Notes: generated from the sequence alone by a model not told the origin. 64,000 bases of DNA from a bacterium (GCA_963663405.2 CAXXSM010000140.1:9554-73553), one strand, 5' to 3'. Shown: positions 45,042 to 62,994, counted from the stretch's first letter. Made by a program: numbers and translations.

Positions 45042-45356
45042 TCTCCTCAGTTATTATATTGATTTCATACCAATTTGATGGAGTTCTTAAATCCTATAGA
45101 GGATAGCAAGAAATCAAAGTTTTTGGACAGGGAAGGGAATTAGGTCCGGTACTGATTCATCATGAGAGAGATATCCTCATTCTATTCGATTGATTCTGCA
45201 GATAAAAAACAGAGAAAACTTGTACTCCTTATAAAAAGTGAGTACTCTTGCTAAATAATTACTTTTAAATTCGTTTTCGATTGATCTTACTCGGTTTATT
45301 GGAACTTATTCTTTGTATGAAAAGAATCCGTCCAGGTGAAAGAAACTCAATACATC

Positions 45357-46544
45357 ATGAAAAAGAAAAACAATTCATTTCCTACATCGGAAGAGATTGT
45401 AGAGATCCTTAGTAAAAAAAATGAAGCTCTTGCTCGATTGTTGACGGATGAACTTCTTGAATTAATGATGGCGAACGCTGTGGTGAAGCGGTATCCCGTC
45501 GGCAAAGAAATTATTAAGCAGCATAAACCATCTGATTCTCTTTATATCGTTTTAGAAGGACGCTGTCATGTGTTAATCAATGATGAGTTGATCAGCCAAA
45601 TGGAAACGGGAGATTTATTTGGTGAGATGGGCGTGATTCAAAATATGCCAAGAAGCGCGACAGTCATTACGACGGAAAAAACCCGCGCGCTTCGAATTCC
45701 CGGCGCCGATTTTAAAAAGATGTTATATAATCCGAAATTGGCTCAGTGGATAATGGTTCTCCTGACCGATCGCTTAAAACGCAGTTCCCTTGACGCTGTC
45801 CGCGCAATGAAAGAAAAAGAGGAGATTCTTCAGGACCAAATAGAACTGGCGCGCGTGCAACGCTCGCTATTGCCCAATGAACTGCCAACCGATATGCGTG
45901 TCCGGCTGCAAGTGCTGTATTCTCCCTGTACATACGCCGGAGGGGATTATTATGATTCGATTTTACTCGATCATGATCGTCTTCTGCTAATCGTCGCGGA
46001 TGTCACAGGACATGGGGCCCAAGCTTCCATTTCCATGGCGATTGTGCGCTCCTTTATTCATCAGCCCAACATAGGAAAAAGAGCGTCAACCATTCTCAAA
46101 CGATTGAATAACTATCTTTTGGAATACGGTCCCTCACAACATTTTGTCACCGCGCAGGTTGCAATCCTGGATTTAAATACGCGGAAACTCCAATACGCGT
46201 ACGCAGGGCATCCTCCGATTTTGCTTTTGCGGAATGGTGTTTGCAAACCACTGCCCGCGCCCCGCGCTTATTTTCTCCGTTTTCATTGGGACGCGTCATA
46301 TGAATACTCGACAATTTCATTGAAACCTGGAGACCGGATCGCCCTTTTCACGGACGGAGTTGTCGAGACCTTCAATCCTTCGGGCGCGATGTTCAACATG
46401 GAAGGATTACAGAATTTAATCGTGAATACACGAATGAAATCCCTTCCGGAAATTCCTTCTCTATTAGAAGCGGAACTAAAACGCTTCCGGAAAGGCAGTC
46501 CCGTAGAGGATGATATTACATTTCTAGTGGCGGAAATACAATGA
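45357..46544 (+). CDS. Cyclic-nucleotide-binding domain plus PP2C/SpoIIE phosphatase
   Basis: FGEMG...PRSATV (cNMP domain); GGDYYD, ADVTGHG, AGHPP, FTDGVVE, DDIT (PP2C). Confidence 0.92.
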   Translation: MKKKNNSFPTSEEIVEILSKKNEALARLLTDELLELMMANAVVKRYPVGKEIIKQHKPSDSLYIVLEGRCHVLINDELISQMETGDLFGEMGVIQNMPRSATVITTEKTRALRIPGADFKKMLYNPKLAQWIMVLLTDRLKRSSLDAVRAMKEKEEILQDQIELARVQRSLLPNELPTDMRVRLQVLYSPCTYAGGDYYDSILLDHDRLLLIVADVTGHGAQASISMAIVRSFIHQPNIGKRASTILKRLNNYLLEYGPSQHFVTAQVAILDLNTRKLQYAYAGHPPILLLRNGVCKPLPAPRAYFLRFHWDASYEYSTISLKPGDRIALFTDGVVETFNPSGAMFNMEGLQNLIVNTRMKSLPEIPSLLEAELKRFRKGSPVEDDITFLVAEIQ

Positions 46545-46587
46545 TGACAGGTGGGCCGCTTTACCTATTCACATTAGTAGAATTTTT

Positions 46588-47265
46588 TTATGAATTCTTC
46601 GCGGTGATCTGGCTGTAGTCCAATCGGATTTCAATTCTCCGGTTGATTTTGGATTCGATTTTATCTTCGAGGGGCTGGTATTCGCCATAACCGATCGCGG
46701 AGATGCGATTCATTTCTAATTTTACATTTGTATTATCCTCTTGAGATAGTTGGTGAAACAAGCGGACAACCGCTAAAGCCCGTTCACTGGACAATTCCCA
46801 ATTATCCTCGTAGCGGCCACTATGGATAGGCAGGCGGTCTGTATGCCCTTCCACTTCAATTAACAACTTGGGATGACCATATTCGGTTAGAAATTGCGCG
46901 AGGTGGGTTAAGACTTCCCTTCCTCTTGGTTGTAGATTGGCTTCCCCTTTCACAAATACAATGTCAGCAGAGAAACGTAATCGTTGTAAACTGCCTTTTC
47001 TCTCTTCTGTAATGGCGCCTTTTTCAATGGCTTCTTGAAAGATTGAGTTTTCTCTGAACTGCCGCCAAAACAACTCTTGTTGCTGTTTTCGTGTGAGTTC
47101 ATCAAAAACCTGGGACAATTCCAAGAACTGCGCGACTAACATAAAGACAAAAAACAAAACGAGAGCCATGGAAATATCCGAAAAGACAGGCCATACATCA
47201 TCCGTGCTTGAATAGGCGCTGTCAATGAATGGATCGTGTCGATATCTATGGTTGCGTTTGCTCAT
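46588..47265 (-). CDS. MotB/OmpA-family stator subunit (ZorB-like)
   Basis: Single TM with a conserved Asp (VWPVFSDISMALVLFFVF); OmpA-C motifs IVFVKGEANL, IEVEGHTD, NWELSSERALAV, NRRIEI. Confidence 0.9.
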   Translation of the reverse strand: MSKRNHRYRHDPFIDSAYSSTDDVWPVFSDISMALVLFFVFMLVAQFLELSQVFDELTRKQQQELFWRQFRENSIFQEAIEKGAITEERKGSLQRLRFSADIVFVKGEANLQPRGREVLTHLAQFLTEYGHPKLLIEVEGHTDRLPIHSGRYEDNWELSSERALAVVRLFHQLSQEDNTNVKLEMNRISAIGYGEYQPLEDKIESKINRRIEIRLDYSQITAKNS

Positions 47266-47273
47266 GAAAACAT

Positions 47274-49130
47274 TTATCTTTTCGGTTTCAAAAATGTAAA
47301 TAGATTAGAAATTCTCTGTCCCCATCGTATGTTTTTCTCACGGATCGATTGAGTAAGAAGCAGAAGCGCTTGTGTTGTTTTTCGTAATTCCGCATGCAAT
47401 GAATCCTGCTCTTGATTGGTTTCAGAAGATTGTTTTGTTCGCGTGGATTCACTGATTGACGTTGACAATTCATTGGATGGCGCATTCGGAATGTTAGCAA
47501 GGTTTGTTTGATTTACATTCATTTCATCAACGCTGTCTTTTAATAGATTCCATGATTCGATTGATGTGGAATCACGATTGATCCGCTCTAAAATCTTGGC
47601 CGCTTTATCCATTTTCTTGTGTATCGCGATCATTTCTGTTTTGATTTCAATCAGTGGATTCACAATTACATTCGGGAAGACCGATAATTTGTTATTCAAG
47701 TTTTTCAGTGGGAAGTGCGCCGCTTGTTCTTCCAATCCTTTTTGCAAAGAATCAACATGTTCCCGGATTGATTCCACCGTGTGTGCAAGAAGCGCCGCTG
47801 GTGGACGAAATTCGGCAGTGAATCTATCTGATTGATCGGCCATCCACGCTTTCATGTCATCCAATCGGATTTGTACATCACGTATCGTAGTCTTTAAATC
47901 GGATAGATTCGAGATCCCCTCGTTTTGAATTTGTGATAAATTGACATCCATGTCAGAAGACGCCTGATCAATGCTGGATTGCAGGCGGTTCAGCGCAGGA
48001 ACAATTTGCTGTATTTGTTCTAGTTCTTTGCTATTGAATTCTGTAATTTGTGACCAGTGTTTCGCAAGTTCCTGCTCCAACACCTTTCCGATTGTTTTAA
48101 CGACTTCTAACCGGAGTTCACTTTCAGGTGTAATTTTCGCGATGGTATCATTGAGCTGATTGATACGTTCGCGCATAAAACCGAGTACATGATTTGTTTT
48201 TTCCGCGGCGTCAGAAAAATAACCGGCTGCGTGTTCTAAGCGATCGATGACTTCTTGTATATTGATTTGTCGATCCGCCGCAGTTTGTACAGCGGAGACC
48301 AATTGCACGCAGAGTTGGTTGATCGCATTGGATGTGCTTTCCACTGTTTCTGTGAAGGTCTTTTCCACTACTTGGCGGCTGACGGTTTCCACCATTTCTC
48401 GAATCGATTGCAGTAAATCATCATTATCCGGCGCCGCCAGTGGCACAATGGATGTAGTCAAGATCGTATCCACTTGTTTGAGTAAATGATTGTTCATCCA
48501 GCGGGAAGCGATTAAAAGCGGTGATAGAACCACTGCGCCGATGACTCCAAATAATGTGGTTGTAAAGGCCGTGCCCAATCCGGAAAGTGTATTTCGTAAT
48601 GGTTCACGCAGGTTTTCAATACTTGTGAGGGATTCGATATCAAAATATACATTTTGAATAGCCATCGTGAGACCGATCAATGTGCCGATCAGGCCTAATA
48701 AAATACACATGCGTTGAAACAATTGTAACAATCCTACAGGCTTGTAACGCGCAAGGCTTAATTCCACGACATCATCGACTAACCGGCGCGCAGAATGGCG
48801 ATCAAGCCGTTCAATCATTCGAATTGCATTTTTAAGGACAGGGACATGCCAACAGATTTTTCGCAATCGTGCAATTGTATCTTCTGTGCCGGAAGAAGTT
48901 GAATTCATTTTTGAAATACGGCTATGAATCCAACGGATAGCGGCGATCGTATATCCCCGCCATGAAAATTGAATGAGAAATAGGATAAATCCTATATCCA
49001 CTATCCAGCGGATTATAAAAATAATGTATTCCGCTTCAGCAGATAAAGAAGTGAAGATACTTTTTTGAAAGTCAATTGGCAAAAAAGAAAACAAAAAATC
49101 AGTCAGCATTGAACTGTATCCAGTTGACAT
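47274..49130 (-). CDS. MotA/TolQ/ExbB-family stator subunit with a ~400-aa helical C-terminal tail (ZorA-like)
   Basis: Three TMs including LLGLIGTLIGL and LSGLGTAFTTTLFG, then a long heptad-rich tail. Alternative start at ATG 49109. Confidence 0.88.
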   Translation of the reverse strand: MSTGYSSMLTDFLFSFLPIDFQKSIFTSLSAEAEYIIFIIRWIVDIGFILFLIQFSWRGYTIAAIRWIHSRISKMNSTSSGTEDTIARLRKICWHVPVLKNAIRMIERLDRHSARRLVDDVVELSLARYKPVGLLQLFQRMCILLGLIGTLIGLTMAIQNVYFDIESLTSIENLREPLRNTLSGLGTAFTTTLFGVIGAVVLSPLLIASRWMNNHLLKQVDTILTTSIVPLAAPDNDDLLQSIREMVETVSRQVVEKTFTETVESTSNAINQLCVQLVSAVQTAADRQINIQEVIDRLEHAAGYFSDAAEKTNHVLGFMRERINQLNDTIAKITPESELRLEVVKTIGKVLEQELAKHWSQITEFNSKELEQIQQIVPALNRLQSSIDQASSDMDVNLSQIQNEGISNLSDLKTTIRDVQIRLDDMKAWMADQSDRFTAEFRPPAALLAHTVESIREHVDSLQKGLEEQAAHFPLKNLNNKLSVFPNVIVNPLIEIKTEMIAIHKKMDKAAKILERINRDSTSIESWNLLKDSVDEMNVNQTNLANIPNAPSNELSTSISESTRTKQSSETNQEQDSLHAELRKTTQALLLLTQSIREKNIRWGQRISNLFTFLKPKR

Positions 49131-50371
49131 GAATGTGTTTTGAGCACAGGTAGATAAGCGATCGAATGATCCCGCCTGTTATGTATTGTGATAATATCGG
49201 TCCATAAATCCTGCGAAGGTCTACAGGGAAGATACAAGGTTGTTCGTATTGGATCAGAATCGTCCATTTCTACTTCTGTATTTTCTAATTCTGGTGGGAA
49301 ATAGAATAGTAAATCCATACCATCTCCACGAACATCATTAATGGATTTGACAAGAATAGAGACGATCTGATTGTCCGTATTCCAATTGATCAAAGGTGGA
49401 AAAATATTGAGTCTTTGACGCTTAGGGAATTGAATGATGCGCTTGCGATTTGTGATAATCGTTTCATCTGTTTCAACAGTTACGTTATAGGAAAATATAT
49501 CTGAGTCACGACCGCAGGAAAGTTCGATTGTATTAATCGGAGAAGTGTTAGACAATAATAAATCTTGTTTTATGTGCGTCTTTCCACCCTTTTTCCGTAT
49601 CCTCGCTTTAACAGGCCGTTCTCCGATTAATTTTAATCTTAACGTATATCGATCGAGATGCTCATCATCAAATTTATCCAACTGATGTTCTATCGTAACC
49701 ATTGGCGATTGCAAGAGAAAGACAATAGTTGTTTCGAGTTCTGGAATTGATAATCGGTAACGTATAGGTAAATTCGTTGTCGGTAAATCTGTATTCGTTG
49801 GATATCGCACTAAGAACGTATTTTTTGTAGTCTTATCACACTCAATATAGAGACCCAGCGGATTTTTATTAAGTAAATTCAGTAATAAAGGCTGTGGCAT
49901 TGAAATCAGAAAACCAGGATTAAACATAACATAACTTAAAATTCCTCGAGAATATAGATAAACATTATGCCGAATTGAGGGGAGAGGGCTTGATAGACGT
50001 TTTTCATTCGTAACAATTCCAATTTTTAGATCCCTTATTACTTCATCAAATCGCAGCCAAATCCCTTCCGTTGAGTCCCACTCGTATTGGATCGGATAAT
50101 CCTGTATATAGCCATTCCTATCTAAAATGTATTTACCTGCAATCCATCGATTTTTAGAGAGCGCTCCAATACAGAATTGACCATTTCCACCAGTTACCAA
50201 TGTTAGCTCAGAATGAGATTGGAGACGAACCTTGTATGTTTCGGATAGAGGCAATTTCGGTGGGATATGACCTAAAGGTTCTAGTTGTAAACGATCGATA
50301 TCTACGGGTGTGGCAATGACTCCCGAATTGGTCCAGATTGTTTCATTCAATGAAAAAGATATGTCATTCAT
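49103..50371 (-). CDS. Hypothetical beta-rich cytoplasmic protein, tightly linked to the MotA-like gene
   Basis: 422-aa ORF that overlaps the next gene; no recognisable motif, signal peptide or TM. Confidence 0.75.
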   Translation of the reverse strand: MNDISFSLNETIWTNSGVIATPVDIDRLQLEPLGHIPPKLPLSETYKVRLQSHSELTLVTGGNGQFCIGALSKNRWIAGKYILDRNGYIQDYPIQYEWDSTEGIWLRFDEVIRDLKIGIVTNEKRLSSPLPSIRHNVYLYSRGILSYVMFNPGFLISMPQPLLLNLLNKNPLGLYIECDKTTKNTFLVRYPTNTDLPTTNLPIRYRLSIPELETTIVFLLQSPMVTIEHQLDKFDDEHLDRYTLRLKLIGERPVKARIRKKGGKTHIKQDLLLSNTSPINTIELSCGRDSDIFSYNVTVETDETIITNRKRIIQFPKRQRLNIFPPLINWNTDNQIVSILVKSINDVRGDGMDLLFYFPPELENTEVEMDDSDPIRTTLYLPCRPSQDLWTDIITIHNRRDHSIAYLPVLKTHSCQLDTVQC

Positions 50372-50379
50372 GAGCGCAA

Positions 50380-51867
50380 TTATACTATCTCTACATCAGG
50401 TTTACGAAGAATTTTTTTGGTTGATCGCCAGTAGAATCCTCTGTGTATGACTCGTTTGATACGCCCATTTGTTTTAGGATCAGCCCAGGTTACTAATTGA
50501 TGTTGAGCAGGATTGAATGGCTCTCCATGAGAAGGTTGCATGATTTCAAGATCAAACAATTCGGCAATCTCCAGAAAATGATGAACAAGGGTAGTATAGA
50601 ATTCTTCGGCTTCTATTGTGTCCTGTTCCTGTTCTTCCCATTGATATACATAATTTAAAAAATATTTCTGCACGACGGTTGGAAGAAATTGGTTTTTCTG
50701 AGCGAGTGGTTTACGTGTGCGAATCGCTTTGGAAAATGCTTTGTCAATAATAACAAATATGTATTGCATGAATCCACTTTCATCACGAGTAAGAGACATC
50801 GCATGTCGATATTCTCCATGCTGATAAAGCAGTTCGCGATAATCGTTGAAATCCGATAAAAATTTTCCAAATTCTATCATTAAATCATCCGCAGACAGTT
50901 GAAAAGGCAATACAGGTCCGATATTGGAAAGAAATTCATACAAATTATCTCTAAAGTTTGTTACGAAGGAACTTGCGGATGGATTCACTCTGAGAAGTAT
51001 CATGATAGCGCCATTTTTTTGATCCACTTTGTTAAAGAATTGTATCGCAATATCAAAATCCTCCACATCGACGCTGCAATAATTCTGAATATCCTGTGTT
51101 TCCAATTTCCACTTGGCATTCATAAACTCAGTCAGATCGTTGCACTGCTCACGAACACGCTCTACAGGTGATTGCGCGCGAAACTGGAAAGATTGAGATT
51201 GATTGTCAGTTTTCATCAAAGAAATCGATTCAGATATAGGTTCAGGTTCTTCATGCTCTGCAGATGAATACCGATCGTTTACGATTTTCCCTGTAACTTC
51301 TGGATGTTGAGTAATAAGTTTTTCTAGAATCTGAGATAGTTTCTTCTCCCGGTTAAAAAAAATCCAAATCATAATAAACCAGGAAATCATTATAATGCAA
51401 ATAAGAATAGTAAATATTATTAAGTAAAAAGAAAAATCGGAAGTACCGGCTGTGTCGTAGTCAGTAGAATTATCACTTGGTACTTGTCTTGGCTCCGGTA
51501 ATGGTTTCAATTTATTTTCATTTATGAATATCAGTATAGGATAATAACCGGAAGGGATTCCATATAAAGCGTACGTCTTTGTATTCAAAACACACAAAGA
51601 TGGAAAAAGAGAGGATAAAATCGATGAAGGGACATTCAACCAAAAGGAACTTATATTATTCTGAAAATCTATGGTTGAAGATGAATTGATTATTAGAGAA
51701 GATATGACTGGACTCGGTGACTGTATTTCAGTATGGTTTCTTGCAGTATTATCGTGATTCTCAACTGCATAAGATTGATGGAGAAACAGAGGAATGAAGA
51801 AGAAAGAAAACAGGAAGCATAAATACATGATTCGAACAGTTTTTGTATACCCAAGCGATCTATACAT
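50380..51867 (-). CDS. Membrane protein with a C-terminal GrpE-like head domain
   Basis: Signal peptide, extracytoplasmic segment, TM (FYLIIFTILICIIMISWFIMIWIFF); C-terminus GEPFNPAQHQLV...GRIKRVIHRGFY...ILRKPDVEIV matches the GrpE pattern G-x-x-F-D-P-x-x-H...G-x-I-x-x-V...G-Y...R-x-A-x-V-x-V. Confidence 0.72.
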   Translation of the reverse strand: MYRSLGYTKTVRIMYLCFLFSFFFIPLFLHQSYAVENHDNTARNHTEIQSPSPVISSLIINSSSTIDFQNNISSFWLNVPSSILSSLFPSLCVLNTKTYALYGIPSGYYPILIFINENKLKPLPEPRQVPSDNSTDYDTAGTSDFSFYLIIFTILICIIMISWFIMIWIFFNREKKLSQILEKLITQHPEVTGKIVNDRYSSAEHEEPEPISESISLMKTDNQSQSFQFRAQSPVERVREQCNDLTEFMNAKWKLETQDIQNYCSVDVEDFDIAIQFFNKVDQKNGAIMILLRVNPSASSFVTNFRDNLYEFLSNIGPVLPFQLSADDLMIEFGKFLSDFNDYRELLYQHGEYRHAMSLTRDESGFMQYIFVIIDKAFSKAIRTRKPLAQKNQFLPTVVQKYFLNYVYQWEEQEQDTIEAEEFYTTLVHHFLEIAELFDLEIMQPSHGEPFNPAQHQLVTWADPKTNGRIKRVIHRGFYWRSTKKILRKPDVEIV

Positions 51868-51890
51868 AATAGAATCCTAAATAGAAGTAA

Positions 51891-53390
51891 TCATCCAAGT
51901 CTCACCGTAGGTTTGCGAATGGGATTGCCTTGGATCCGTTTGACTCCTCGTCTTACGATCGATTGAATACGGCCTGAGTTAGAACTCGATTCCTGTGCAA
52001 ATTCTTCCAGCGTATGTTGAAGAGGATCAAAAGTATCATGGATTTTTACATCCGTCAGTTCCATTCCCAGTGGTTTTAATAAAGAACTTAGATAATCCGT
52101 AAGGATCGGTGATAATTCGGGAATTGTGTTGCTATATTTCTTTTCTAAAATTTCAAGTTCATCAATATGTTCCATCACATCAACTTTCGCGATCCGATTC
52201 AATTCTTCCGTCAGCGTTTCGATAGAAATGTGTGAGGATTGAATTTCATGAATCGCATCCAATAGAATTGTATTATAAAAGGAAAATACATAGTGACGGT
52301 AGGCAATAACTGGGTCCAATCGATCGTTCGAAGGGATATCTTCTTTCCCTATCAATCCCACAATCGTATGATAATAATCCGAATGAAGAAACTCGTTATA
52401 TTTTTTGGGATTCTGATCAGTAAAATTAGGTATTTTTGTCACTCCAAACATGGCGTTGTATTTAGACTGGATCTGCTCGCGAAATCCCCCTACTTTAAAT
52501 TTGAAGGCGGAATGGGATTGTTCAATAGTTTGAATCGCAGGATTATCCGGCGAAAAAGAATTGATAAGCGTGTTAAACGCAATGAAAGCGGGATGATTTT
52601 CTAAGTCTGGAATCAAATTCAATTGCGCTTCCCGGATGCATTTATATTTATTAACAGAAAACGCACGTTTTACAAGTTCTATAAATTCCTGGTAATCCTC
52701 TTGCGCTTTACGGTGATCGCTTACAGACAATAAATCATGTTTAAGAGAACGAATTTCATTCTGAAGGATGCGATTGTATGTTTCACCAGTCTCAATGGTT
52801 GATAGTTTTGAAAAGAGTTTGTTAAATGATAATTCTGTTTTGGAAATGAATTCAACTACTTTGCTATGTTGATTGTTGAATTGATTCAGAAAACCTTTGT
52901 AGCTTACAGACAACGCGTTCAGTTGTTCTGATAGATATGTGAATTGATCCGATGAGTTTGTTGATGGAAATGAGATTATATTTTTTTGCTCTGACTTATA
53001 ATCAGATGTTGTATTCATGGATAAAGATATTTTTACTATATATTTGCGATCAATTGGATGTGGCCAAATTTGTAGATTAAAATGTACTTCATCAAAATCT
53101 TCCGGCTTTGATAATTTAATATAATATCTTGATTTGAAGATACCATTATAATAACTTAATGGACATTTTTGTTTGTTTTTGTTTAGGATAAAATGGCCAT
53201 CCACAATATTAAAATCATTAGTGCGTTGAATTTTAGGAATCAATTGTATATAGTTACTATGTTCGTCTGGGATAAAATCGATGATGCCTTTCTTAACGAT
53301 AGGAGAATTGTGATTTGCGCGTAAAATTTCATAAAAAATAACATATTCTCCTATTATTATTGTATTTTCATAACATTTCATTGGACGCAT
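51891..53390 (-). CDS. Coiled-coil protein with a C-terminal GrpE-like head domain
   Basis: Heptad-rich middle; C-terminus LGMELTDVKIHDTFDPLQHTL...GRIQSIVRRGVKR...IRKPTVRLG. Confidence 0.72.
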   Translation of the reverse strand: MRPMKCYENTIIIGEYVIFYEILRANHNSPIVKKGIIDFIPDEHSNYIQLIPKIQRTNDFNIVDGHFILNKNKQKCPLSYYNGIFKSRYYIKLSKPEDFDEVHFNLQIWPHPIDRKYIVKISLSMNTTSDYKSEQKNIISFPSTNSSDQFTYLSEQLNALSVSYKGFLNQFNNQHSKVVEFISKTELSFNKLFSKLSTIETGETYNRILQNEIRSLKHDLLSVSDHRKAQEDYQEFIELVKRAFSVNKYKCIREAQLNLIPDLENHPAFIAFNTLINSFSPDNPAIQTIEQSHSAFKFKVGGFREQIQSKYNAMFGVTKIPNFTDQNPKKYNEFLHSDYYHTIVGLIGKEDIPSNDRLDPVIAYRHYVFSFYNTILLDAIHEIQSSHISIETLTEELNRIAKVDVMEHIDELEILEKKYSNTIPELSPILTDYLSSLLKPLGMELTDVKIHDTFDPLQHTLEEFAQESSSNSGRIQSIVRRGVKRIQGNPIRKPTVRLG

Positions 53391-53400
53391 TTTATCAACC

Positions 53401-54421: not shown

Positions 54422-54428
54422 GATCGGC

Positions 54429-57400
54429 TCAACAATCGGAAAGGATTGTATCCTTACATGCATTAATCGGAGGCCATAAGGAATAGGGCTCCAACTCCGC
54501 GCCGTGACTGGGATTCGGTTCGAGCGTGACGCGCAGTTCCTCATCCCGTGTTAAAATCACCTTCATCCGCGCGCTTTCAATCTGTTCGTCTGTCCATCCA
54601 TCGGGAAGAATTTGAAATTTGGCTATATCGCGAAATTCCTGATCTTTTTTACCAGTGATCAAGTTTGAACTGACTTGTAAATTGATAAAAGATTCAACCA
54701 AGGTGACCGTTTTCCCACGGCAAAGAGGAAAATTCTCACATACCGCTTCCGCGGGGAGAGGCGTCAATCGATCGATAACGGGAATGTAACCTTTGGATCC
54801 GATGATCCGTCCACGAAGGAAAATATAGACCCGGCTTACGCGATTCATTTCAACGTTTATATATTCGCGCATGTATCCATAGATGGCGCTTCCCATGGCG
54901 ACCGCTTCTTTGATGTTCGCAAGAGGCACAATCTCAACAGGTTTTCCATCATTGGCTTCCAGCACAGCTTGCCGAAGCATCTCTTGGATTAAAGGCATAC
55001 GGCTGGACTGACCGGACATCAATACTTTGGTGAGAGAACATTGGGAATCCATCTGTTTGACATTCCGGATCATGGTCTTGGCTTTTTCAAGCGCGCCGGA
55101 TAACGCCTGTTTGATCTGGGATTCGATCGCGTCTTTTTTGCTGACAATATCCGTAAAAAACTGGATTCGCTTTGGTTCGCTGTCAGGATTCTTTTTCTCA
55201 ATTCCACTGACCGATATATTCATCTCATCGGTCGAACCACTGGTGAAGATGTATATTTTTAGCAGTTCGGCTATCCAGTATAAATTCCAATAATTCAAAG
55301 TCGCTAAGTTGGTATACCGGCCCGATTCTTGAGTCAGTGTTTCTATACGTGAATATGGAATGATTATGGCGTCTTCTTCCTCATTCTCCGATTCTTCCCA
55401 ATCCGTATTTGGATTCGCTTGTATAGATTTAGCACGGTTTCCCACAGTGGACTTTGTGGAGAGTTCAGATAAATCTAAAAGTTCCTCTTCATCTTCGTCC
55501 GGCGACCAGATCGGAAATTCATCATTCCTTGCGTCAAACGCAGTATTCGCGTTAGAAGCAGAAGGATTCTGTTCTCGTCGGTTCGAGTTTTTTCCATTCG
55601 GAAAAGTGGTTTGATATTCCTCTTCTCTTCCATTCGCCACGTTTTTAGCGCGCCTGTACAATTGTTTCTGAATGATCTCCGTTAGATATTCCCCTCCCAA
55701 ATCGTTCGTGCCGTCAAAATCCAAGTGACGGATCGAGATTCTCTCACTCACCGCGTCGTAAGTGACTTCGCAAAGGGTCATATCAATTGTCCCCCCACCG
55801 AAATCAAACACAAGAATGATCTCTCGTTCGTCCGGGACTCTCGCTTTGCTATTGGATTCGAAATAACGTCCAGCGACTAAGTAGTATAACAAAACGGAAG
55901 ACGCTTCATCGATGAATCCAACAGACAATTGATTGGGATTAATATTAGACGCTTCCGTGCTCTTAATTAGCGCGTCCCGCAAGGCCAATCGCTGCTTGGT
56001 CCAAAAGCGGACGGGATGACTCAGTATAACATGAAGATAATCATATCCTGTTTCCTCCCGTGTGACGGTTAATAAGTTTTTCAAGTAATCATAGGCGATG
56101 GAATCGACTGTTTTATTCTTGACATTGGGCATAAAGGGAAAATGATGATGAAAATCCAGTCCAATTTTGGGTTTAAAAAATGTAATGGTTTTATAGCCAA
56201 TTTGAGGAGACGCCTGCAATGCGTCGAGCGCCGGTCCTCCCACCTCTTCGACTTCCACTTCCTTACTTTCCCATTCTGACGCGAAACCTCCCGCCGCCCG
56301 GTATTTCACAATCGTCGGCACAACGATGGGATTATCTTTATTGCACCCTTTCCGCTGGATCAGAGGAGGGAGGGGAATCATCTCTGGAAGATTGTTATCG
56401 TTAATAATCGCCACACAAGAATTGGTATTGCCGAAATCGATTCCCATCGGCAGTTCCCACTCGATTTGGCACACGACAATCTCCATAGGAAACGATTTTG
56501 TAAATGAGGGTTCGGGAATCTCATCGACTCGAATGTGGATACGGAATTCGCTTTTTTCTCCAGCGCTATCCCACTGTGTCATATCCAACGTTATTTTCCC
56601 TAGAAAAAGGAGCCGTTCGCTCTCCATCGCTTTATCCACCATGAGCGGGAATGGTTTATTGGGGATAAAAGCGCTATAGACGCCGTGTCCGGTGATATGT
56701 TCGGGGAGTTCCACATCGATCGCGTCAATCGAAAACACGCGCCGGCTGTGGTGTTTCATCCATAATTCAAACGAACGCTTACAGCCTTTCAAGATCCGGG
56801 GGGTGATGCCTTCCGGCAGTTCCAAGTAGATTTCAAATTCAGTCTTCGGGATGTAATGGAGAGTGAACGTGTCCGTGAAAACGGACGCGCCCATTTCAAC
56901 GATGGGGACTTCCAGCCGCACCGTTCGTGTTGTCACGCCTTCTGAGAAAAACGATTCCAGATCCGCGACATGAATGGGAATCGGCAGGTTGACTTTTAGT
57001 TGGCGCGTTGAAATATCTTCTCTTTCGACAGTGGCGGTTTGATTGGTTTCTATATTGTGTAAAACGATGTTCTCTTCGTGCGAGAGCGTTAGGTCTCTGT
57101 CAAGAGAGACGAGGTTAAATTGTATACCCTTTTTGGGATCCGCGATACGCAACAGGCGGAAATCCCCGCTAATCTGAACATCTACGCGGGGAGGCGGTTT
57201 CAATGGAATCTGGACCGGATCGACTTTTACACCGGATTCAGCGCGGTCCTCCGAACCGGTCAAAAGGTGAAATGTGAGTAATTCAGCAAGCCGGGCGTTT
57301 TCATGGAGTGGAATGGTTAGGGAAATGATTTCGCGCGACTTGGGGGCGAGGGAAACGGGCCGTGGGAAGTCGATTGTCCGTTCGTCCTCAGACGCGGGCC

Positions 57401-57644
57401 GGGGGGATCTCCATTTCAATCCACGCGCAGTGATGGATATACTGCCAGTATTTTCAAGCAGCAGATTGACGCCGATCTCCTCACTGCCCCGTATCCAGGG
57501 CATTCGCGGCCCTTCCTGCGGTTGTACACTTAACGTACGCAGCCTCCGGCCGCAAAATCCACAGAACGAGTCGGTCTCCGGATTGACCGGCCACTTCAAC
57601 ATGCAGGGACAATGCTCGACTTGGTTCTCTTTCATATTCCACAA
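54429..57644 (-). CDS. Atypical Hsp70-family ATPase with N-terminal Zn-ribbon and Ig-like domains
   Basis: CPC...FCGFCG at the N-terminus; ATPase motifs MGIDFGNTNS, FFKPKIG, SHPVRF..KQRLAL, FIDEAS, VFDFGGGTID, LGGE, AELLK, SGQSSRMPLI, KEAVAMG. Likely start ATG 57635. Confidence 0.9.
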   Translation of the reverse strand: MWNMKENQVEHCPCMLKWPVNPETDSFCGFCGRRLRTLSVQPQEGPRMPWIRGSEEIGVNLLLENTGSISITARGLKWRSPRPASEDERTIDFPRPVSLAPKSREIISLTIPLHENARLAELLTFHLLTGSEDRAESGVKVDPVQIPLKPPPRVDVQISGDFRLLRIADPKKGIQFNLVSLDRDLTLSHEENIVLHNIETNQTATVEREDISTRQLKVNLPIPIHVADLESFFSEGVTTRTVRLEVPIVEMGASVFTDTFTLHYIPKTEFEIYLELPEGITPRILKGCKRSFELWMKHHSRRVFSIDAIDVELPEHITGHGVYSAFIPNKPFPLMVDKAMESERLLFLGKITLDMTQWDSAGEKSEFRIHIRVDEIPEPSFTKSFPMEIVVCQIEWELPMGIDFGNTNSCVAIINDNNLPEMIPLPPLIQRKGCNKDNPIVVPTIVKYRAAGGFASEWESKEVEVEEVGGPALDALQASPQIGYKTITFFKPKIGLDFHHHFPFMPNVKNKTVDSIAYDYLKNLLTVTREETGYDYLHVILSHPVRFWTKQRLALRDALIKSTEASNINPNQLSVGFIDEASSVLLYYLVAGRYFESNSKARVPDEREIILVFDFGGGTIDMTLCEVTYDAVSERISIRHLDFDGTNDLGGEYLTEIIQKQLYRRAKNVANGREEEYQTTFPNGKNSNRREQNPSASNANTAFDARNDEFPIWSPDEDEEELLDLSELSTKSTVGNRAKSIQANPNTDWEESENEEEDAIIIPYSRIETLTQESGRYTNLATLNYWNLYWIAELLKIYIFTSGSTDEMNISVSGIEKKNPDSEPKRIQFFTDIVSKKDAIESQIKQALSGALEKAKTMIRNVKQMDSQCSLTKVLMSGQSSRMPLIQEMLRQAVLEANDGKPVEIVPLANIKEAVAMGSAIYGYMREYINVEMNRVSRVYIFLRGRIIGSKGYIPVIDRLTPLPAEAVCENFPLCRGKTVTLVESFINLQVSSNLITGKKDQEFRDIAKFQILPDGWTDEQIESARMKVILTRDEELRVTLEPNPSHGAELEPYSLWPPINACKDTILSDC

Positions 57645-57726
57645 GCGTTGATTTTTTTCACAGAAGGTCTCTTTAGTTTATGTTTTGTAATTCCTGACTG
57701 GGCGCTGTTGTATTGTCGAAAAAATA

Positions 57727-60700
57727 TTACTCTATGTGAGGATAATTCTCCTGTTCGATGTTGGAATCGGAAAATAAATTTGTATCCCGTGTTGTCTCCA
57801 TCTGCTGCGATCGGATTTCTTCAATGAACAAAGTATTAATCAATCGATCACCGAGTTCACGAAACCGTTTTTTCTTATACAGATTGGTCTCGTATTTCGC
57901 CAGATTCTCATTAATCACGGCTTGAACAATCTCAATACCGATCAACGAGATGACGTTCTTGATGCGTTCGATAAAGTCCAGCGACGCTTGTCCTTCATCC
58001 ACTAGCGCAAAGTTTCCAAGGTCCTTGTCCGCGTGTAAATTGACTTCCTCCGAGATGCCGTTTCGGCTGATGTAGTAATAGGTCACATCTCTTGTTTTCG
58101 CGTCCCGGTTTAAGAAACTCTGCGTCTCCAACTGCTCCCAAAAAAGATCGACGATATCCACCCAAAACGTGAGTTCATCGATGATTTTCCGCAGTTTCGG
58201 GTGATAGTGCAATGCGCCGATTTTGTGGGTGTAATGATTGGCGTAGGGAGAATGCGCCTGATTCTGCGCTTCAGAGCGTCCACCATGACGGAGCAAGTGA
58301 TCCAGGTCATCTGCAATCAGCCAATCCTCCAGCGATAAAGCGGCCGCTTCATCATAAAAAATCACCATGTTGTCCAACGTGCATTCAATGGTTTCAAACG
58401 AGGGCAGTTTGGGATCGATCGCATTCAATTGATTCTGCATTTCAACAAGACGGGATTTTGAATGACGTGGGCCTATGATCATATCCGGTTCGTCACATCC
58501 TTTGTTGGGCACTTCGCCTTGCGGGAACTGAAGCCAAGGGATGCAGCCACGGGCGACCTCGAGTTTGGTTTGATTGGAATACCGGTCGGTCTCCAATTCA
58601 TCGAGAATGCTGATCGGTTGCGCCGTGCGCCAACATTCGGCTTGATAATATTTGAGAAGCAGTTTTTCCGCTTCCTCCGCGTTTTTAGAGATGAACTGAT
58701 TGAAACTGATTCGTTCCATTCCGTCTTGCAGGAATTCCTGATACACATTGATATGGCGATGTTTATTTTTCACGACATTGGCGAGTTCTTCGGCGTCCGC
58801 GGCGAGCACGCCCTTCTTAGTCACCATCCGCATGCTTCCCAAATCTCTCTCCCGGATGATTTCATTCCAACGGTTCTGCAAAGCGGGCGCGACCTTGTTT
58901 TTCAACCGGTTGAAGCGGTCTCTCATCTGAAGACGAATCGAGGCGGTCTCTTGTTGATATTCACCTCCCACAAGGTTCTCTCCGAGAAACTCTTCATGCG
59001 CTTCTTCACAGATTTTCCGCATTACGGCGCCAGCGATATTCTCGATTTGTTGTTTGAGTTTCTCCGAGATATTATCAATCGCCCGTTCAATGTAATACCG
59101 CTGAACCGGCGCGCGGGCCATTAAAATCGATAGCCATAGGTCTTTGCAGACATCTTTGAACCGCAGAGAAATACCTCGTAAAGAGGGCCAGGGAACACTC
59201 AACGGCTCTACTTTTACGGGCAGTTCGTTGATTGTTTTTTGCATAAAGGCAGGGAGCAAATCGAGATATTTAACGATCTCTTCCACACTGCTCCATTGCC
59301 CCTCGGCGATCTCATTCGTATGACGCTCCGCTTTTTTCTGGATAGCGTCCAATAACTGTTTCTTTAATTTCCGCGCTTCGGCGAGAAAATGATTGTGCAG
59401 GGCGCCGTTCGGTTGCAACGCGTCGATAAGATTTACATTCCCTCCTTGTACATTGGGGAGCGTTAATTCGTTCTTTAGAAGAGAAAGAATCGCTTGCGCC
59501 GAATTGACAGAAGCGAGGGATAAGGCGGTATTCACCTGTTCGAGCGTATGCGTCAGGATATTGAACTCATTCACTTCCAGCAATTGACTGCGGATCGTTC
59601 CATAGATCTCTTCCCAGTCTCCTTCCGCGCACTTGTTCGCTTGATTCAAATTGCCTTCTTTCGTCCATTCATCCACAAGAGCGAGGCTCAAGTGACAGGC
59701 GGCGGCGGTGGCGATCATGAATTTAGGATAGAAAAAGCCGGACAGGCCGTGCGATTGAATCTGCTGAACGTACATTCCATTCTTTGAACGGCGTCCAATC
59801 TCTTCTGTGATTTCGTATTGCGCGCGCTGTTGATCTTTATAGGCCCGCACTTGCGGGACTAAATCTAAATAAAGTGATGTCGAAATCGAAGCATGCAACG
59901 CGCTCAGATCGTAATCCTGCCCGTTCCACGTAACGGATCGGATCCCGCTGTCATTGGACGGCGAGATAATATTCATAAAGGTATAAGGGCCTCGGTCATT
60001 CGGTTGGGGAGGAAAATTGGTGGAGTCATCCAATGGATGTTTGATATAGTAATGATGATCCCCGCTGGCCCAATAGTCATATTCAACCATCGCAGCCCAG
60101 CAGTTCATCGAACAGACAACATCCGAACGCTTGCGGCTCATGACCATGCTGCGGTCTACCACCGTAAACGTGCCATGCACGTAGGAATCATTGATCGCCG
60201 CGTCCAACAAGGCTTCCTGCGCCATATAGCCCACTTCCCAAAACGTGCCCGAGCAGGTTCCCCCGCAGAGAGAGCCGCAGATGTAAATTCGGAATGTCTG
60301 TTGGACCAGTTCTTCATCCGGACGCGGGATATTTTGGGAATCGTAATGCTGTTCCAACATGCGGATGGTTTCATCCCGTCCTCCGCGCGCGTTGTTGATG
60401 GCGGAGACTAAGGATTTATAGACACGTTCCCAGTTCGCCCATAAACAAAACCGTCCAGCCATCCGCCAGCCCCGCGCGCCTGATTCAAACGCCGTGCCTG
60501 ATGTCACTTCTTTATCCAGCCAATCGGACCAACCATCATGGAAATCCGGGCTTCGTGGATCAACTTTGCTTTTCAGTTGATTGAGTCCTTGGCGGCTGAC
60601 GGTGAGTGGAATTAATTGAAGCCTTTGCCAGGGCTTGTTCTGATCCGTGACATAAATATCCATTGTGGATGATGGACGGATGGAGAGCGTTTCGAGACTC

Positions 60701-60820
60701 AAAAAACGCATGCAAGGGCAAACCCGGCACGCCATATTCTTCAAACAACAGGCGGCGCACTCCTTGAATGATTTCCGTTCCCGATGTGCCGAGTCCGATG
60801 AAGACTGTAGGCATAACCAT
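57727..60820 (-). CDS. Tubulin/FtsZ-like GTPase (Tubulin_2 / FtsZl1-type) with a long helical C-terminus (one frameshift near 60715)
   Basis: RBS AAGGAG then ATG 60820: TVFIGLGTSGTEII; after an indel, RFLSLET...GARGWRMAGR...ICGSLCGGTCSG (tubulin signature variant)...NCWAAMVE; about 1030 aa in total. Confidence 0.88.
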
Positions 60821-60831
60821 AATAAATCTCC

Positions 60832-61192
60832 TTACCGCCTCTGTTTTTCCGCAGCCCGTACATAGTGCGAATACCTGGGATTAAATATGAGTTGAATTAA
60901 AAACACATCCAATAGAATGCACCCAATATATACCAACAATGTGGGCCACCAATCCCAGAAATTCTCCGTCGGTCCTAGTTTTCGAAACCAGAGGATGTAT
61001 TCCACGATCCCCGTAATCAAGCCCGCGAACATATGCAAATAGATCAGGTTGATGGTCCCATCGATAAGCGCTGGATTCCGGTGTGCCTTTTTTCGTTGGC
61101 CGTCCGCGTGGCAGTATCATTTCTAGAAGTAGAAACGCCACAACCAATCCACCGAAATACCATAGTAAAACAATCGTTACGTCCATATTCAT
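60832..61192 (-). CDS. Small multi-pass membrane protein (frameshift near 61040-61060)
   Basis: RBS AAGGAG; TM1 in ORF 60881..61192 and two further hydrophobic segments in ORF 60832..61038; ends 11 bp before the tubulin-like gene. Confidence 0.6.
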
Positions 61193-61221
61193 TCTCCTTC
61201 ACCCTGTCTGTTCCAGTGGCT

Positions 61222-62981: not shown

Positions 62982-62994
62982 AACCTCGGAATAA

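Follow-up and report, generated by a model that had tools for sequence, protein, structure and literature searches.

What does a MotA/MotB-like gene pair drive when it lies apart from flagellar and Ton/Tol genes and is accompanied by none of the known Zorya effectors? Such a pair forms the 3' end of a tightly packed eight-gene operon (Table 1) in a bacterial window of 64,000 nucleotides, by which we mean the whole stretch of DNA analyzed here. Zorya systems occur as type I (zorABCD), type II (zorABE) and type III (zorABFG). To our knowledge, no MotAB-type motor other than that of Zorya passes a signal into the cell by way of a long tail, and the known outputs of Zorya are all nucleases. An initial annotation had proposed that Hsp70, GrpE and tubulin proteins encoded upstream of the pair take the place of those nucleases, in either a new Zorya-like subtype or a non-defence use of the motor.

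Table 1. Genes of the operon, in window coordinates, with the basis of each assignment.
Feature	Position	Strand	Product and basis
ZorB/MotB-like B subunit	46588..47265	(-)	225 aa; Pfam OmpA, PADLOC ZorB3, alignment
ZorA-like A subunit	47274..49130	(-)	618-aa ORF; Pfam MotA_ExbB, PADLOC ZorA, topology, Foldseek, tree
All-beta soluble protein, no family	49103..50371	(-)	422 aa, mostly beta; kept in L001
Membrane-anchored protein, GrpE-like C-terminus	50380..51867	(-)	495 aa; TM 11-29, 149-167; weak Pfam GrpE
Soluble GrpE-like paralogue	51891..53390	(-)	499 aa; orthologue of L001 4293-5816
Gene without family, ~344 aa in L001	53401..54421	(-)	two ORFs here, frame change
Hsp70-like ATPase	54429..57644	(-)	1071 aa; Pfam HSP70 E 2.5e-8
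FtsZl1/Tubulin_2-type GTPase	57727..60822	(-)	about 1030 aa; Pfam Tubulin_2 E 2.1e-22

The A subunit, which likely starts at Met8 (49109), where the 611-aa database copy P0001 also begins, had been described as a MotA-family protein with three transmembrane (TM) segments and a tail of about 400 aa, and this description held. Three hydrophobic segments (residues 35-53, about 134-163 and 184-202) are present, Pfam MotA_ExbB matches residues 99-206 above its cut-off (28.0 bits against 22.9; E 1.9e-6), and the rest of the protein, from about residue 211 to 618, is a helical tail of some 408 aa. The domain between TM1 and TM2 is basic: its loop 57-140 contains 16 lysines and arginines, whereas residues 1-33 contain one and residues 164-185 two. 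The positive-inside rule thus places the part beyond TM3 in the cytoplasm and not in the periplasm. The AF2 monomer model is of low confidence (mean pLDDT 58, with 70-83 in the TM core) and helical throughout, its tail consisting of eight long helices with short breaks between them. The term heptad, which had been applied to this tail, proved acceptable but inexact: hydrophobicity is indeed periodic, but its peak (z 8.7 against 200 shuffles) lies at 3.55 residues, with z 7.9 at a period of 3.50, and it differs also from the period of about 3.65 residues in the tail of E. coli ZorA type II.

The B subunit follows after 8 bp (bases 47266-47273) and comprises a basic cytoplasmic N-terminus, a single TM segment (residues 27-45) with the motif FSD (Asp30) and a periplasmic OmpA-like peptidoglycan-binding domain. 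Both Pfam OmpA (E 1.8e-13) and PADLOC ZorB3 (E 1.1e-24; protein residues 14-213 on positions 5-200 of 215 in the profile) match it. When the protein is aligned with MotB and type II ZorB of E. coli, Asp30, GHTD, N155, LS..R and NRRIEI all have counterparts, and W25, D30, GHT, N155, LS, R162 and RR209-210 are invariant. The ORF positions, the Pfam match and this alignment all agree with the initial reading of a MotB/OmpA protein that keeps FSD and the peptidoglycan motifs. The plug segment of E. coli MotB (alignment columns 59-121) is absent from the B subunit, from ZorB type II and from the orthologue in a divergent Omnitrophota MAG (L001), to which the B subunit is 58% identical.

These properties bear on whether the pair could simply be the stator of a flagellum, like MotAB and PomAB, or serve a Ton/Tol system, like ExbBD and TolQR. 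Although the top PDB matches of the B subunit are the OmpA domains of MotB, PomB and MotS (E 3.4e-13 to 4e-12), and NCBIfam MotD reaches 89 bits on its C-terminal part only (cut-off 283), flagellar A subunits have four TM segments with a large TM2-TM3 torque domain, whereas the present A subunit has three and a 400-residue tail. In Foldseek its best matches were ExbB (the top one), ZorA and TolQ chains (TM-score on target 0.43-0.64), while flagellar PomA scored merely 0.32-0.33. The three-TM core fold is thus common to ExbB and TolQ, but those proteins are tailless and of about 230-245 aa, as opposed to 618 aa here; ExbD and TolR, moreover, are without the OmpA domain that the plugless B subunit carries, and the pairs depend on TonB or TolA. 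None of the NCBIfam models for MotA, ExbB and TolQ matched the A subunit at E <= 0.01, and the scanned ORFs of the window included no gene of flagellar, TonB, TolA or Pal type (for TonB and TolA, ORFs of at least 150 aa). A flagellar or Ton/Tol identity is contradicted by the topology, fold, HMM and B-subunit domain tests, and we regard it as extremely unlikely.

By sequence, the A subunit resembles ZorA, though weakly. Against four E. coli A subunits, BLAST gave a significant match to ZorA type II only (37% over 62 aa, E 1.5e-5), and the HMM of the family core scored ZorA-II at 24.3 bits, ExbB at 6.7, TolQ at 4.9 and MotA at 2.1. Five PADLOC ZorA models match the A subunit (E 1.1e-9 to 5.3e-6, 23-36 bits), the best of them with 35.5 bits, aligned along 265 residues to a profile of 683 positions; NCBIfam gave no match. 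For true members, PADLOC ZorA scores would be in the hundreds of bits. Among the 59 nearest relatives scanned, none exceeded 72 bits on any PADLOC ZorA model.

A phylogenetic tree sets the A subunit apart from ExbB and TolQ. In this tree, built on 135 columns and with the single canonical ZorA on a very long branch (4.95) and not clearly placed, the A subunit of the window falls into a six-row clade with P0002-P0006 (support 95), and ExbB and TolQ (99) group outside the 80 rows of tail-bearing proteins (support 82). The pair belongs to a rare clade of its own, apart from flagellar stators and ExbBD/TolQR pairs. Relatives score down to E 2.8e-83, so the ORFs are real and not chance. Six representatives, including the query itself, were found at E <= 1e-30 among 1.84 billion searched (that is, five other clusters) and 374 at E <= 1e-3, and a pattern-limited scan of 185,579 species genomes returned one close relative; such rarity fits an accessory system rather than a core one.

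With Zorya the pair shares the gene order A then B, a three-TM MotA/ExbB-family A subunit whose helical tail runs for hundreds of residues in the cytoplasm, a B subunit that combines the essential TM aspartate and an OmpA-like peptidoglycan-binding domain but has no MotB-type plug, and conserved threonines in TM2 and TM3, of which Thr143 (TM2) and Thr184/Thr185 (TM3; P0001 numbering) are invariant in all six family members. It is very likely, in our judgement, that the pair is of ZorAB type. The locus differs from Zorya in the weakness of the match to canonical ZorA, in the separate six-cluster clade, and in its partners, which lie upstream rather than downstream and are tubulin-like, Hsp70-like, GrpE-like and two family-less proteins. 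PADLOC found no ZorC/D, ZorE, ZorF/G, helicase or nuclease in 47 window ORFs (10 + 37), in line with the earlier statement that no such gene adjoins the pair. Upstream of the operon, the sequence analyzed extends to position 64000; the contig has a length of 73,553 bp. The site 3' of zorB, where canonical effectors would be expected, is closed: a convergent gene with cNMP_binding and SpoIIE/PP2C domains (45336-46544, (+)) ends the operon, as first noted, and unrelated ThuA and GFO/IDH genes take this place in L001.

Of the upstream partners that had been proposed, the Hsp70-like and tubulin-like proteins were recovered by Pfam, whereas GrpE stayed under the threshold. In the first gene of the operon, Pfam Tubulin_2 covers residues 29-357 of the long ORF (profile positions 53-355), and an extension of about 640 aa follows the GTPase domain. 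We take Tubulin_2 to be the FtsZl1 family, whose architecture matches. The T4 loop (GGT.SG) is conserved in five of five aligned sequences, the one in the window included, and the N-terminus, which contains the conserved T1 loop (GLGTSGTE), is encoded from 60820 in a different frame, whereas it is in frame in four relatives. The Hsp70-like ATPase begins with a zinc ribbon (CPC...CGxCG) and an unassigned beta-rich stretch of about 350 aa; its nucleotide-binding domain has all phosphate and adenosine motifs plus an acidic insertion, and GIDFGNTN, DFGGGTIDMT and GQSSR.PLIQE are invariant in all three Hsp70-like sequences. Partial NCBIfam DnaK and HscA matches were also obtained, and identity to the L001 protein is 38%. 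By eye, the protein ends in a beta substrate-binding-like part without a helical lid.

GrpE combines a long helix and a four-helix bundle with a beta domain at its C-terminus, by which it binds the nucleotide-binding domain of Hsp70. The likeness to GrpE is confined to the C-termini of two paralogues and of their L001 counterpart. In the 495-aa protein, whose C-terminus lies on the cytoplasmic side and resembles the GrpE C-terminal domain, Pfam GrpE matches residues 427-494 (profile positions 97-163) with 20.4 bits (E 4.5e-4), below the cut-off of 25.8, and its last 90 aa compare with E. coli GrpE at z 3.7 (1 of 500 shuffles equal). The 499-aa protein gives 11.6 bits (E 0.23; cut-off 25.8) at profile positions as in the 495-aa paralogue and is not significant on its own in pairwise comparison with E. 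coli GrpE (z 0.9; 97 of 500 shuffles equal); the L001 protein, to which it is 28% identical over 146 aa, scores 19.1 bits, again below 25.8. All three matches fall within about 65 C-terminal residues (profile positions 96-163), and an HMM built from these C-terminal parts matches residues 127-190 of E. coli GrpE with 13.1 bits, whereas whole-length hhalign with E. coli GrpE gave a probability of 1.35%. Two proteins are without a family. The 344-aa gene had no match in Pfam and other family searches, Atlas giving a weak DUF5716_C lead only, and the 422-aa protein had none in Pfam, NCBIfam, PADLOC or PHROG. The latter shares 23% identity with L001 5874-7196 across 393 aa, its AF2 model is poor (pLDDT 42; 57-80 only at residues about 320-412), and it is separated from the zorA-like gene by 5 bp or overlaps it by 28 nt, depending on the start.

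Two of these genes carry frame breaks that qualify the earlier description of the upstream genes. The tubulin-like gene changes frame about 35 codons past its start, near 60719-60722, and the 344-aa gene does so near a G5 run at about 54050-54065; the intact L001 ORF 3247-4281 matches the window in two different frames, first along 54421-54050 and then along 54063-53410. Were these breaks real, the system could be a decaying remnant with the pair standing outside any working system, and further overlapping ORFs in different frames upstream, at 61222-63952, could be taken in the same sense. However, a housekeeping sigma-54 activator in the window is split alike, and the G5 run at the 344-aa break and an A5 run in the sigma-54 ORF overlap form the pattern of assembly indels. 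The broken genes are otherwise long open frames with conserved motifs, and the zorA-like gene of L001 has a similar one-base shift, although the protein is intact in another record (P0003). The two breaks in the operon are therefore probably assembly indels, and we consider decay improbable.

Evidence that the pair and its upstream neighbours work together comes from gene order. The intergenic gaps of the operon measure 5-23 bp, except for a single one of 82 bp. L001 retains the tubulin-like, Hsp70-like, 344-aa, GrpE-like, beta, ZorA-like and ZorB-like proteins in the same order, with 23-58% identity and at a GC content of 0.58 as against 0.46 in the window; the tubulin-like protein of that lineage (P0156) has its end at L001 2-217, with the Hsp70-like gene following immediately. 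In a further MAG, tubulin-like and Hsp70-like relatives each lie on contigs of 63,979 bp. Conservation of the order in so divergent a genome indicates that the linkage is functional and not accidental, and the different flanks in the two genomes (cNMP-PP2C here, ThuA/GFO in L001) indicate that the block moves or persists as a unit. The pair might otherwise be an orphan or independent module that merely adjoins a tubulin/Hsp70 operon, given that ZorAB-like tail-bearing proteins form a large and varied cloud (the 374 representatives above) with many kinds of neighbour, the locus L002 described below being one example. Such a chance association, however, is difficult to reconcile with an order and few-base gaps kept across 12 GC points, and with flanks that differ around a constant block; we find it very unlikely, and consider it likely that the eight genes form one system.

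Several features of the operon and its setting count against a Zorya-like role in defence. Its surroundings consist of carbohydrate-degradation and housekeeping genes, so the locus lies, unlike Zorya, outside any defence island, and the scan of 47 window ORFs revealed no other defence system. Neither an integrase nor a mobile element was found near the operon, and there were no plasmid or phage relatives. The GC content of the L001 operon equals that of its flank, so a recent transfer is not obvious there. No recognizable toxic or enzymatic effector was found in the operon.

Parts of this gene set have been described before, so the operon is not wholly new. Makarova and Koonin (2010) described an association of FtsZl1 with membrane proteins and OmpA-family genes, for which they suggested a part in membrane remodelling (PMC2875224). 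Like those operons, the one in the window encodes, along with OmpA-family and membrane proteins, a large protein (about 1000 aa) in which an FtsZ/tubulin-like GTPase domain (T1, T4) precedes a long C-terminal extension. It is unlike them in that neither a vWA protein nor a P-loop GTPase or protein kinase was found: the operon proteins matched no family of these three kinds at E <= 0.01, and the family-less proteins none even at E <= 1. Its OmpA partner, moreover, is a stator B subunit rather than an outer-membrane barrel. MotA, MotB, ExbB, Hsp70 and DnaK each have no occurrence in PMC2875224, and we found no description in the literature of tubulin/Hsp70/GrpE genes combined with a ZorAB-type motor. 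The presence of a Zorya-type motor together with a tubulin-like GTPase and an Hsp70 set, in place of nucleases, suggests a new use of the motor.

How might such a system operate? The reading that we prefer, although we hold it tentatively, is that the pair is a ZorAB-type stator serving as the membrane module of an eight-gene tubulin/Hsp70 system with Zorya logic, with defence as the favored purpose. The analysis shows the architecture of both subunits, the cytoplasmic position of the tail, the lack of Zor effectors, the close packing of the operon and its synteny in a second genome; a 5:2 assembly, rotation, coupling of the tail to partners, a polymer output and a role in defence are what we infer. 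Zorya motors have A5B2 stoichiometry with the tails in a pentameric bundle, and their protection against phage depends on the TM aspartate and the tail. The ZorB-like protein would be anchored to peptidoglycan through its OmpA domain, with Asp30 accepting a proton or ion, and the ZorA-like protein would form a three-TM ring around it, from which a tail some 400 residues long would reach into the cytoplasm. The soluble part would comprise the FtsZl1-type GTPase, the two family-less proteins and a private Hsp70 machine made up of the zinc-ribbon ATPase and the two proteins with GrpE-like ends, one of them tethered to the inner membrane. Were the envelope disturbed, for instance by an entering phage, ion flow and rotation could start; the tail could relay this signal to cytoplasmic partners, and the Hsp70/GrpE cycle could gate assembly of the tubulin-like protein at the disturbed membrane site. 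The output would then be a local polymer or remodelling response and not DNA cleavage. In its most specific form, which we offer as speculation and think rather unlikely as it stands, a tail of about 55-60 nm would command a private cytoskeleton: rotation set off at the envelope would be read by the zinc-ribbon Hsp70 and the tethered exchange factor, which would license GTP-dependent assembly of the FtsZl1-type tubulin into a polymer or membrane barrier at the breach. In this form the system would represent a new output class for Zorya-type motors and would provide the FtsZl1 family with its first defined job.

Whether the system as a whole acts in defence or conflict is a separate matter, and we see such a role as a reasonable possibility short of a probable one. 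The ZorA tail is required for the signal to soluble partners, and long tails of this type are so far known only from a defence system (PMC11946911). The gene set could also be a non-defence machine in which the stator energises or positions a tubulin-like cytoskeleton at the envelope, for division, vesicle formation or maintenance, with Hsp70/GrpE as an assembly chaperone. The membrane remodelling proposed for FtsZl1 and OmpA-family operons would accord with this, as would the housekeeping context, the GC match between the L001 operon and its flank, and the lack of a toxic effector domain; the related motor TolQR, moreover, does envelope and division work (PMC12505986). The patchy spread of the motor, however, would be odd for a core machine. 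The middle genes, moreover, have diverged fast, to 23-28% identity between the window and L001, and the GrpE-like gene is duplicated in the window genome but not in L001. Together with the tail, these points leave a non-defence role somewhat doubtful in our view.

If the preferred reading is correct, the motor with its tail would be a general envelope-to-cytoplasm transducer with exchangeable outputs. We know of no function assigned to the FtsZl1 family since 2010, and the operon would provide an experimental handle on these tubulins. The eight-gene system could be studied in a laboratory strain.

The same reading would join the Zorya field to the predicted assembly-type conflict systems, for which Kaur et al. 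(2020) proposed tubulin, HSP70 and GrpE as modules with a multimerising rather than an enzymatic output (PMC7159879). Those systems likewise have tubulin-domain proteins with C-terminal helical extensions, HSP70 and GrpE, zinc ribbons and membrane-proximal components, but tubulin and HSP70/GrpE appear there as separate themes, whereas the window has both in one operon; the terms MotA, TolQ, ExbB, "proton channel" and "flagellar" have no occurrence in that paper. A further difference is that a ZorAB-type motor stands in place of the DO-GTPase/GAP1 core, for which the Pfam models gave no match in the visible operon, although they did match a second locus (L002). In that locus, a short MotA_ExbB protein is encoded within a GAP1-N2/DO-GTPase2 gene set.

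The A and B subunits best fit a ZorAB-type, envelope-anchored motor that forms the membrane module of a tubulin/Hsp70 system. The initial annotation had described a MotA-family protein with a tail, followed 8 bp on by a MotB/OmpA protein, and this description is correct at the coordinates of the pair as judged by ORFs, Pfam and PADLOC. Residues 99-206 of the A subunit (whose database copy, P0001, begins at Met8) match Pfam MotA_ExbB at 28.0 bits, against a gathering score of 22.9, and PADLOC assigns the protein to ZorA1 (E 1.1e-9) and to four ZorA3 models. The B subunit matches Pfam OmpA (E 1.8e-13) and, across nearly the whole protein, PADLOC ZorB3 (E 1.1e-24), together with six other ZorB models; Zorya models were the sole PADLOC matches of the pair.

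A hydropathy scan placed three TM segments in the A subunit, at residues 35-53, ~134-163 and 184-202. Lys and Arg are concentrated in the 84-residue TM1-TM2 loop (16 residues, with one in the N-terminus and two in the TM2-TM3 loop), and for this reason the N-terminus is placed outside and the ~408-residue tail after TM3 in the cytoplasm rather than the periplasm. The topology is of the ExbB/ZorA type. From an alignment of the six family members, AF2 produced a low-confidence model (mean pLDDT 58; 70-83 for the TM core) that is helical from end to end, with eight long helices and short breaks between them in the tail. When the first ~220 residues were compared with the PDB by Foldseek, the matches were chains of ExbB (9ddo, 5sv0), ZorA (8qyk, 8vvn, 8qyd) and TolQ, at E 2e-3 to 1e-1 and TM-scores on the target of 0.43-0.64, and the sodium stator PomA gave TM-scores of 0.32-0.33; because no match reached E <= 0.001, the comparison indicates the fold class of the A subunit and nothing finer. 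The tail carries a strong amphipathic repeat, which in a windowed test with 200 shuffles peaked at 3.55 residues (z 8.7; z 7.9 at 3.50), and the E. coli ZorA-II tail peaked at 3.65 (z 15.8). A whole-tail Fourier test had seemed to speak against a heptad pattern and was superseded by the windowed test. Within the mid-tail, a Thr-Pro-Glu triplet is invariant in all six family members and falls at a break in the predicted helices, where it may serve as a conserved hinge or docking point.

The B subunit has a basic N-terminus and a single TM segment (residues 27-45) with an FSD motif. It was aligned with its orthologue from L001, an Omnitrophota MAG contig of 12.9 kb, and with E. coli ZorB type II and E. 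coli MotB, and the invariant positions (W25, Asp30, GHT(D), N155, L158-S159, R162 and R209-R210) span the ion-binding Asp and the OmpA peptidoglycan-binding signature. In this alignment MotB has a long plug-holding segment after the TM helix, whereas the window protein and ZorB-II lack it; the available text of Hu et al. (PMC11946911) describes ZorB as having no MotB-like plug. The best PDB sequence matches of the B subunit are the OmpA domains of flagellar MotB, PomB and MotS (E ~1e-12 to 1e-13), and it also aligns from end to end with 8vvn_B, a type I ZorB chain, at E 6.3e-5, but these scores do not discriminate between kinds of stator because the OmpA domain dominates them.

For the A subunit, NCBIfam returned no MotA, ExbB or TolQ model at E <= 0.01, the sole match at that threshold being a weak MCE-family match in the tail. 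Among four E. coli references taken from annotated genomes (MotA, ExbB, TolQ and the ZorA of the Sakai Zorya II island), only ZorA-II was significant by BLAST, with 37% identity over 62 residues of TM2-TM3 and E 1.5e-5 in this small set, and an HMM of the family TM core scored ZorA-II at 24.3 bits, ExbB at 6.7, TolQ at 4.9 and MotA at 2.1. A quick ML tree was computed from 84 TM cores, namely the window protein, its relatives P0002-P0080 (79 of the 150 listed representatives) and the four references. It placed ExbB and TolQ (support 99) outside an 80-row group of tail-bearing proteins (support 82) and the window protein in a six-row clade with P0002-P0006 (support 95); the tree spans 135 columns, has a single canonical ZorA, whose branch is 4.95 long, and leaves 39 of its 81 inner branches unresolved. 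As a whole, these comparisons show that the pair is clearly neither a flagellar stator nor a Ton/Tol pair. PADLOC ZorA models gave no score above 72 bits on the 59 nearest relatives scanned. The pair is ZorAB-like in architecture, and it is a distant, separate branch outside the three canonical ZorA families.

A conserved eight-gene operon ends with the pair, whose convergence with the cNMP-PP2C gene, already seen in the initial annotation, was confirmed. The upstream genes lie on the same strand with gaps of 5-23 bp, and 82 bp before the last; outward from the A subunit they encode the 422-aa, 495-aa, 499-aa, ~344-aa, 1071-aa Hsp70-like and tubulin-like proteins. By tblastn, L001 keeps this gene order, with identities of 58% for the ZorB-like protein, 42% and 31% (in two pieces) for the ZorA-like protein and 38% for the Hsp70-like protein. 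It has one GrpE-like protein (28% identical, matching at the C-terminus), a 344-aa gene in one ORF and a beta-protein counterpart of the 422-aa protein (23% over 393 residues). L001 begins within the preceding gene, and the stretch present there encodes the C-terminal 72 residues of P0156 at 100% identity; P0156 is itself tubulin-like (51% identity to its window counterpart), and so the tubulin-like gene belongs to this block too. In a further NCBI Omnitrophota MAG, a tubulin-like protein (P0155, 52%) and an Hsp70-like protein (P0152, 38%) are both listed on contigs of 63,979 bp, which suggests that their genes share one contig. Synteny of the operon is shown in two genomes, and because these differ strongly in GC (0.46 in the window genome and 0.58 in L001) and in the flanking genes (cNMP-PP2C in the window, ThuA and GFO/IDH in L001), the block has been kept as a unit. 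Promoter and terminator scans of 45000-64000 gave sites no more numerous than in shuffled sequence.

Coordinates of features in the window and in two related loci
Feature	Sequence	Coordinates	Strand	Remarks
A subunit (ZorA-like)	window	47274-49130	-	618 aa
B subunit (ZorB-like)	window	46588-47265	-	225 aa
cNMP_binding + SpoIIE/PP2C gene	window	45336-46544	+	convergent; next downstream of B subunit
Thr-Pro-Glu of A-subunit tail	window	~48123-48131	-	residues 334-336
422-, 495- and 499-aa genes	window	49103-53390	-	AT-rich
Frame change, 344-aa gene	window	54040-54080		near G5 run at ~54064
Acidic insertion, Hsp70-like protein	window	55400-55640	-	residues ~670-760
Frame change, tubulin-like gene	window	60700-60822		~35 codons past start at 60820
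Five ORFs upstream of operon	window	61222-63952	-	152-305 aa
Sigma-54 activator	window	19336-20479		split by frame change
tRNA-Gln	window	29610-29684
Polysaccharide-degradation genes	window	1-45000
End of P0156 gene	L001	2-217
Frame shift, zorA-like gene	L001	7816-7818		one base
GAP1-N2/DO-GTPase2 locus	L002	1300-15453

Two genes of the operon are interrupted by frame changes, in the tubulin-like gene between the GLP and CMRF codons, a few bases upstream of a T6 run (by alignment with relatives), and in the 344-aa gene at a homopolymeric G run. Real decay of these genes is improbable: the sigma-54 activator, a housekeeping gene, is split likewise by a single frame change, and the frame-shifted zorA-like gene of L001 has an otherwise identical, intact counterpart in P0003. 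The breaks look like assembly indels instead. Further upstream on the same strand, five ORFs, one with a TM segment, gave no family match. They overlap one another, in different frames, by 100-140 bases, and additional indels may have split one or two longer genes here.

The partner proteins could be labelled with differing firmness. The tubulin-like protein matches Pfam Tubulin_2 (E 2.1e-22), has retained the T1 (GLGTSGTE) and T4 (GGT.SG) loops and then runs on for ~640 more residues, the same layout as is given for FtsZl1 in the available text of Makarova and Koonin (PMC2875224). The Hsp70-like protein matches Pfam HSP70 at E 2.5e-8; from the N-terminus it consists of a conserved zinc ribbon, ~350 residues without a recognised family, a nucleotide-binding domain in which GIDFGNTN, DFGGGTIDMT and GQSSR.PLIQE are kept in all three sequences and, as judged by eye, a beta substrate-binding-like region without a lid at its C-terminal end. 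A long acidic low-complexity insertion lies within the nucleotide-binding domain, and the L001 protein aligns in two blocks flanking it. The 495-aa protein has two TM segments and a GrpE-like end, and the 499-aa protein is its soluble paralogue. Pfam GrpE matches only the last ~65 residues of the GrpE-like proteins, always at profile positions 96-163, with scores (20.4, 19.1 and 11.6 bits) below the 25.8 cut-off. Compared by profile over their whole length, the three matched E. coli GrpE with a probability of 1.35%, an HMM of their C-termini aligned with GrpE residues 127-190 at 13.1 bits, and the pairwise z-scores of the C-termini against E. coli GrpE were 3.7, 3.6 and 0.9. A GrpE-like C-terminal domain is nonetheless probable, and we accept this weakest of the partner labels because the genes adjoin the Hsp70 gene. 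For the nucleotide-binding domain of the Hsp70-like protein paired with the GrpE-like end of the 495-aa protein, a complex prediction scored 0.00; with the fold of the partner itself uncertain, this score weighs neither for nor against binding. For the 422-aa protein, AF2 reached pLDDT 42 on a two-row alignment, and the best ESM Atlas score was 0.80, with nothing usable. The intact L001 copy of the 344-aa protein gave a weak ESM Atlas lead to DUF5716_C (0.90, 116 shared features), which Pfam at E <= 1 did not confirm and which we rejected.

The pair is rare. An HMMER search of 1.84 billion representatives, query included, yielded 374 sequences at E <= 1e-3, 11 at E <= 1e-10 and 6 at E <= 1e-30, and a word-indexed search found one relative, annotated as from a Candidatus Omnitrophota MAG. 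A pattern scan that took one genome from each of 185,579 species gave 71 pattern matches, two of which encode a relative: L001 and, as a weak match, L002, a Planctomycetota MAG locus. Plasmid sequences had no tblastn match to the ZorA-like, tubulin-like or Hsp70-like protein and phage sequences none to the tubulin-like protein, and PHROGs gave generic OmpA and Hsp70 matches only.

In keeping with the initial annotation, PADLOC on 47 window ORFs found no ZorC, ZorD or ZorE, and no ZorF or ZorG. Its matches outside the operon were generic, to the AAA domain of the sigma-54 activator and the cNMP-binding domain of the PP2C gene; this nucleotide-binding domain alone accounts for a match of the PP2C gene to Pycsar effector models (E 6.8e-18). 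This gene is probably unrelated to the operon, since it is absent beside the operon in L001. The window is not a defence island: the rest of it encodes sulfatase, heparinase-like, BNR, GH43, molybdopterin synthesis and 2-oxoacid:ferredoxin oxidoreductase proteins and an ECF sigma/FecR pair; these surrounding window genes showed no integrase. The 422-, 495- and 499-aa genes, the three least conserved of the operon, have a GC of 0.34-0.38 against a window median of 0.47. We do not take this as recent transfer, because the Hsp70-like and tubulin-like genes are at background GC and the L001 operon matches its flank.

The initial annotation had proposed that the upstream Hsp70, GrpE and tubulin proteins replace the nuclease effectors, in a new Zorya-like subtype or a non-defence use of the motor, and this is partly supported. 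Motors with such a tail are, to our knowledge, described to date only in a defence system. This, the extremely scattered distribution, the rapid evolution of the middle genes, the difference in gene content between the two genomes and the likeness of the partner set to predicted assembly-type conflict modules lead us to prefer, tentatively, a role of the eight-gene system in conflict or defence. The housekeeping gene context and the absence of a toxic domain from the operon leave membrane remodelling as a real, though less probable, alternative.

The gene combination can be set beside earlier descriptions. According to the available text of Hu et al. (PMC11946911), ZorA5B2 is a proton-driven motor whose ~70 nm tail is needed for the signal to ZorC/D. 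Makarova and Koonin, in the part of their text available (PMC2875224), link FtsZl1 to vWA, GTPase and "OmpA family" genes and take the OmpA proteins as outer-membrane barrels; MotA, MotB, ExbB, Hsp70 and DnaK do not occur in that text. GTPase-centred conflict systems with tubulin and HSP70/GrpE themes are described in the available text of Kaur et al. (PMC7159879), in which MotA, TolQ, ExbB and "proton channel" have no occurrence. As far as its available text goes, a 2025 survey of MotAB homologues (PMC12505986) omits ZorAB from its trees and makes no mention of Hsp70. No description of a ZorAB-type motor with tubulin and Hsp70 was found in the literature searched, which lay outside subscription journals and supplements.

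Rfam and tRNA scans of the window found a tRNA-Gln only. The first 45,000 nucleotides are rich in genes for sulfated-polysaccharide degradation (sulfatase, heparinase II/III-like, BNR sialidase-like, GH43 and pectate-lyase-like) and also encode large TPR, PD40 and FG-GAP proteins, a content that suggests a glycan-degrading lifestyle. Finally, the L002 locus encodes a tailless 290-aa MotA_ExbB protein, a vWA protein, a GYF-domain membrane protein, an FHA-trypsin protein and a Ser/Thr kinase. It thereby puts a stator-family protein within a predicted GTPase-centred conflict system, and it hints at a wider use of such proteins in these systems.
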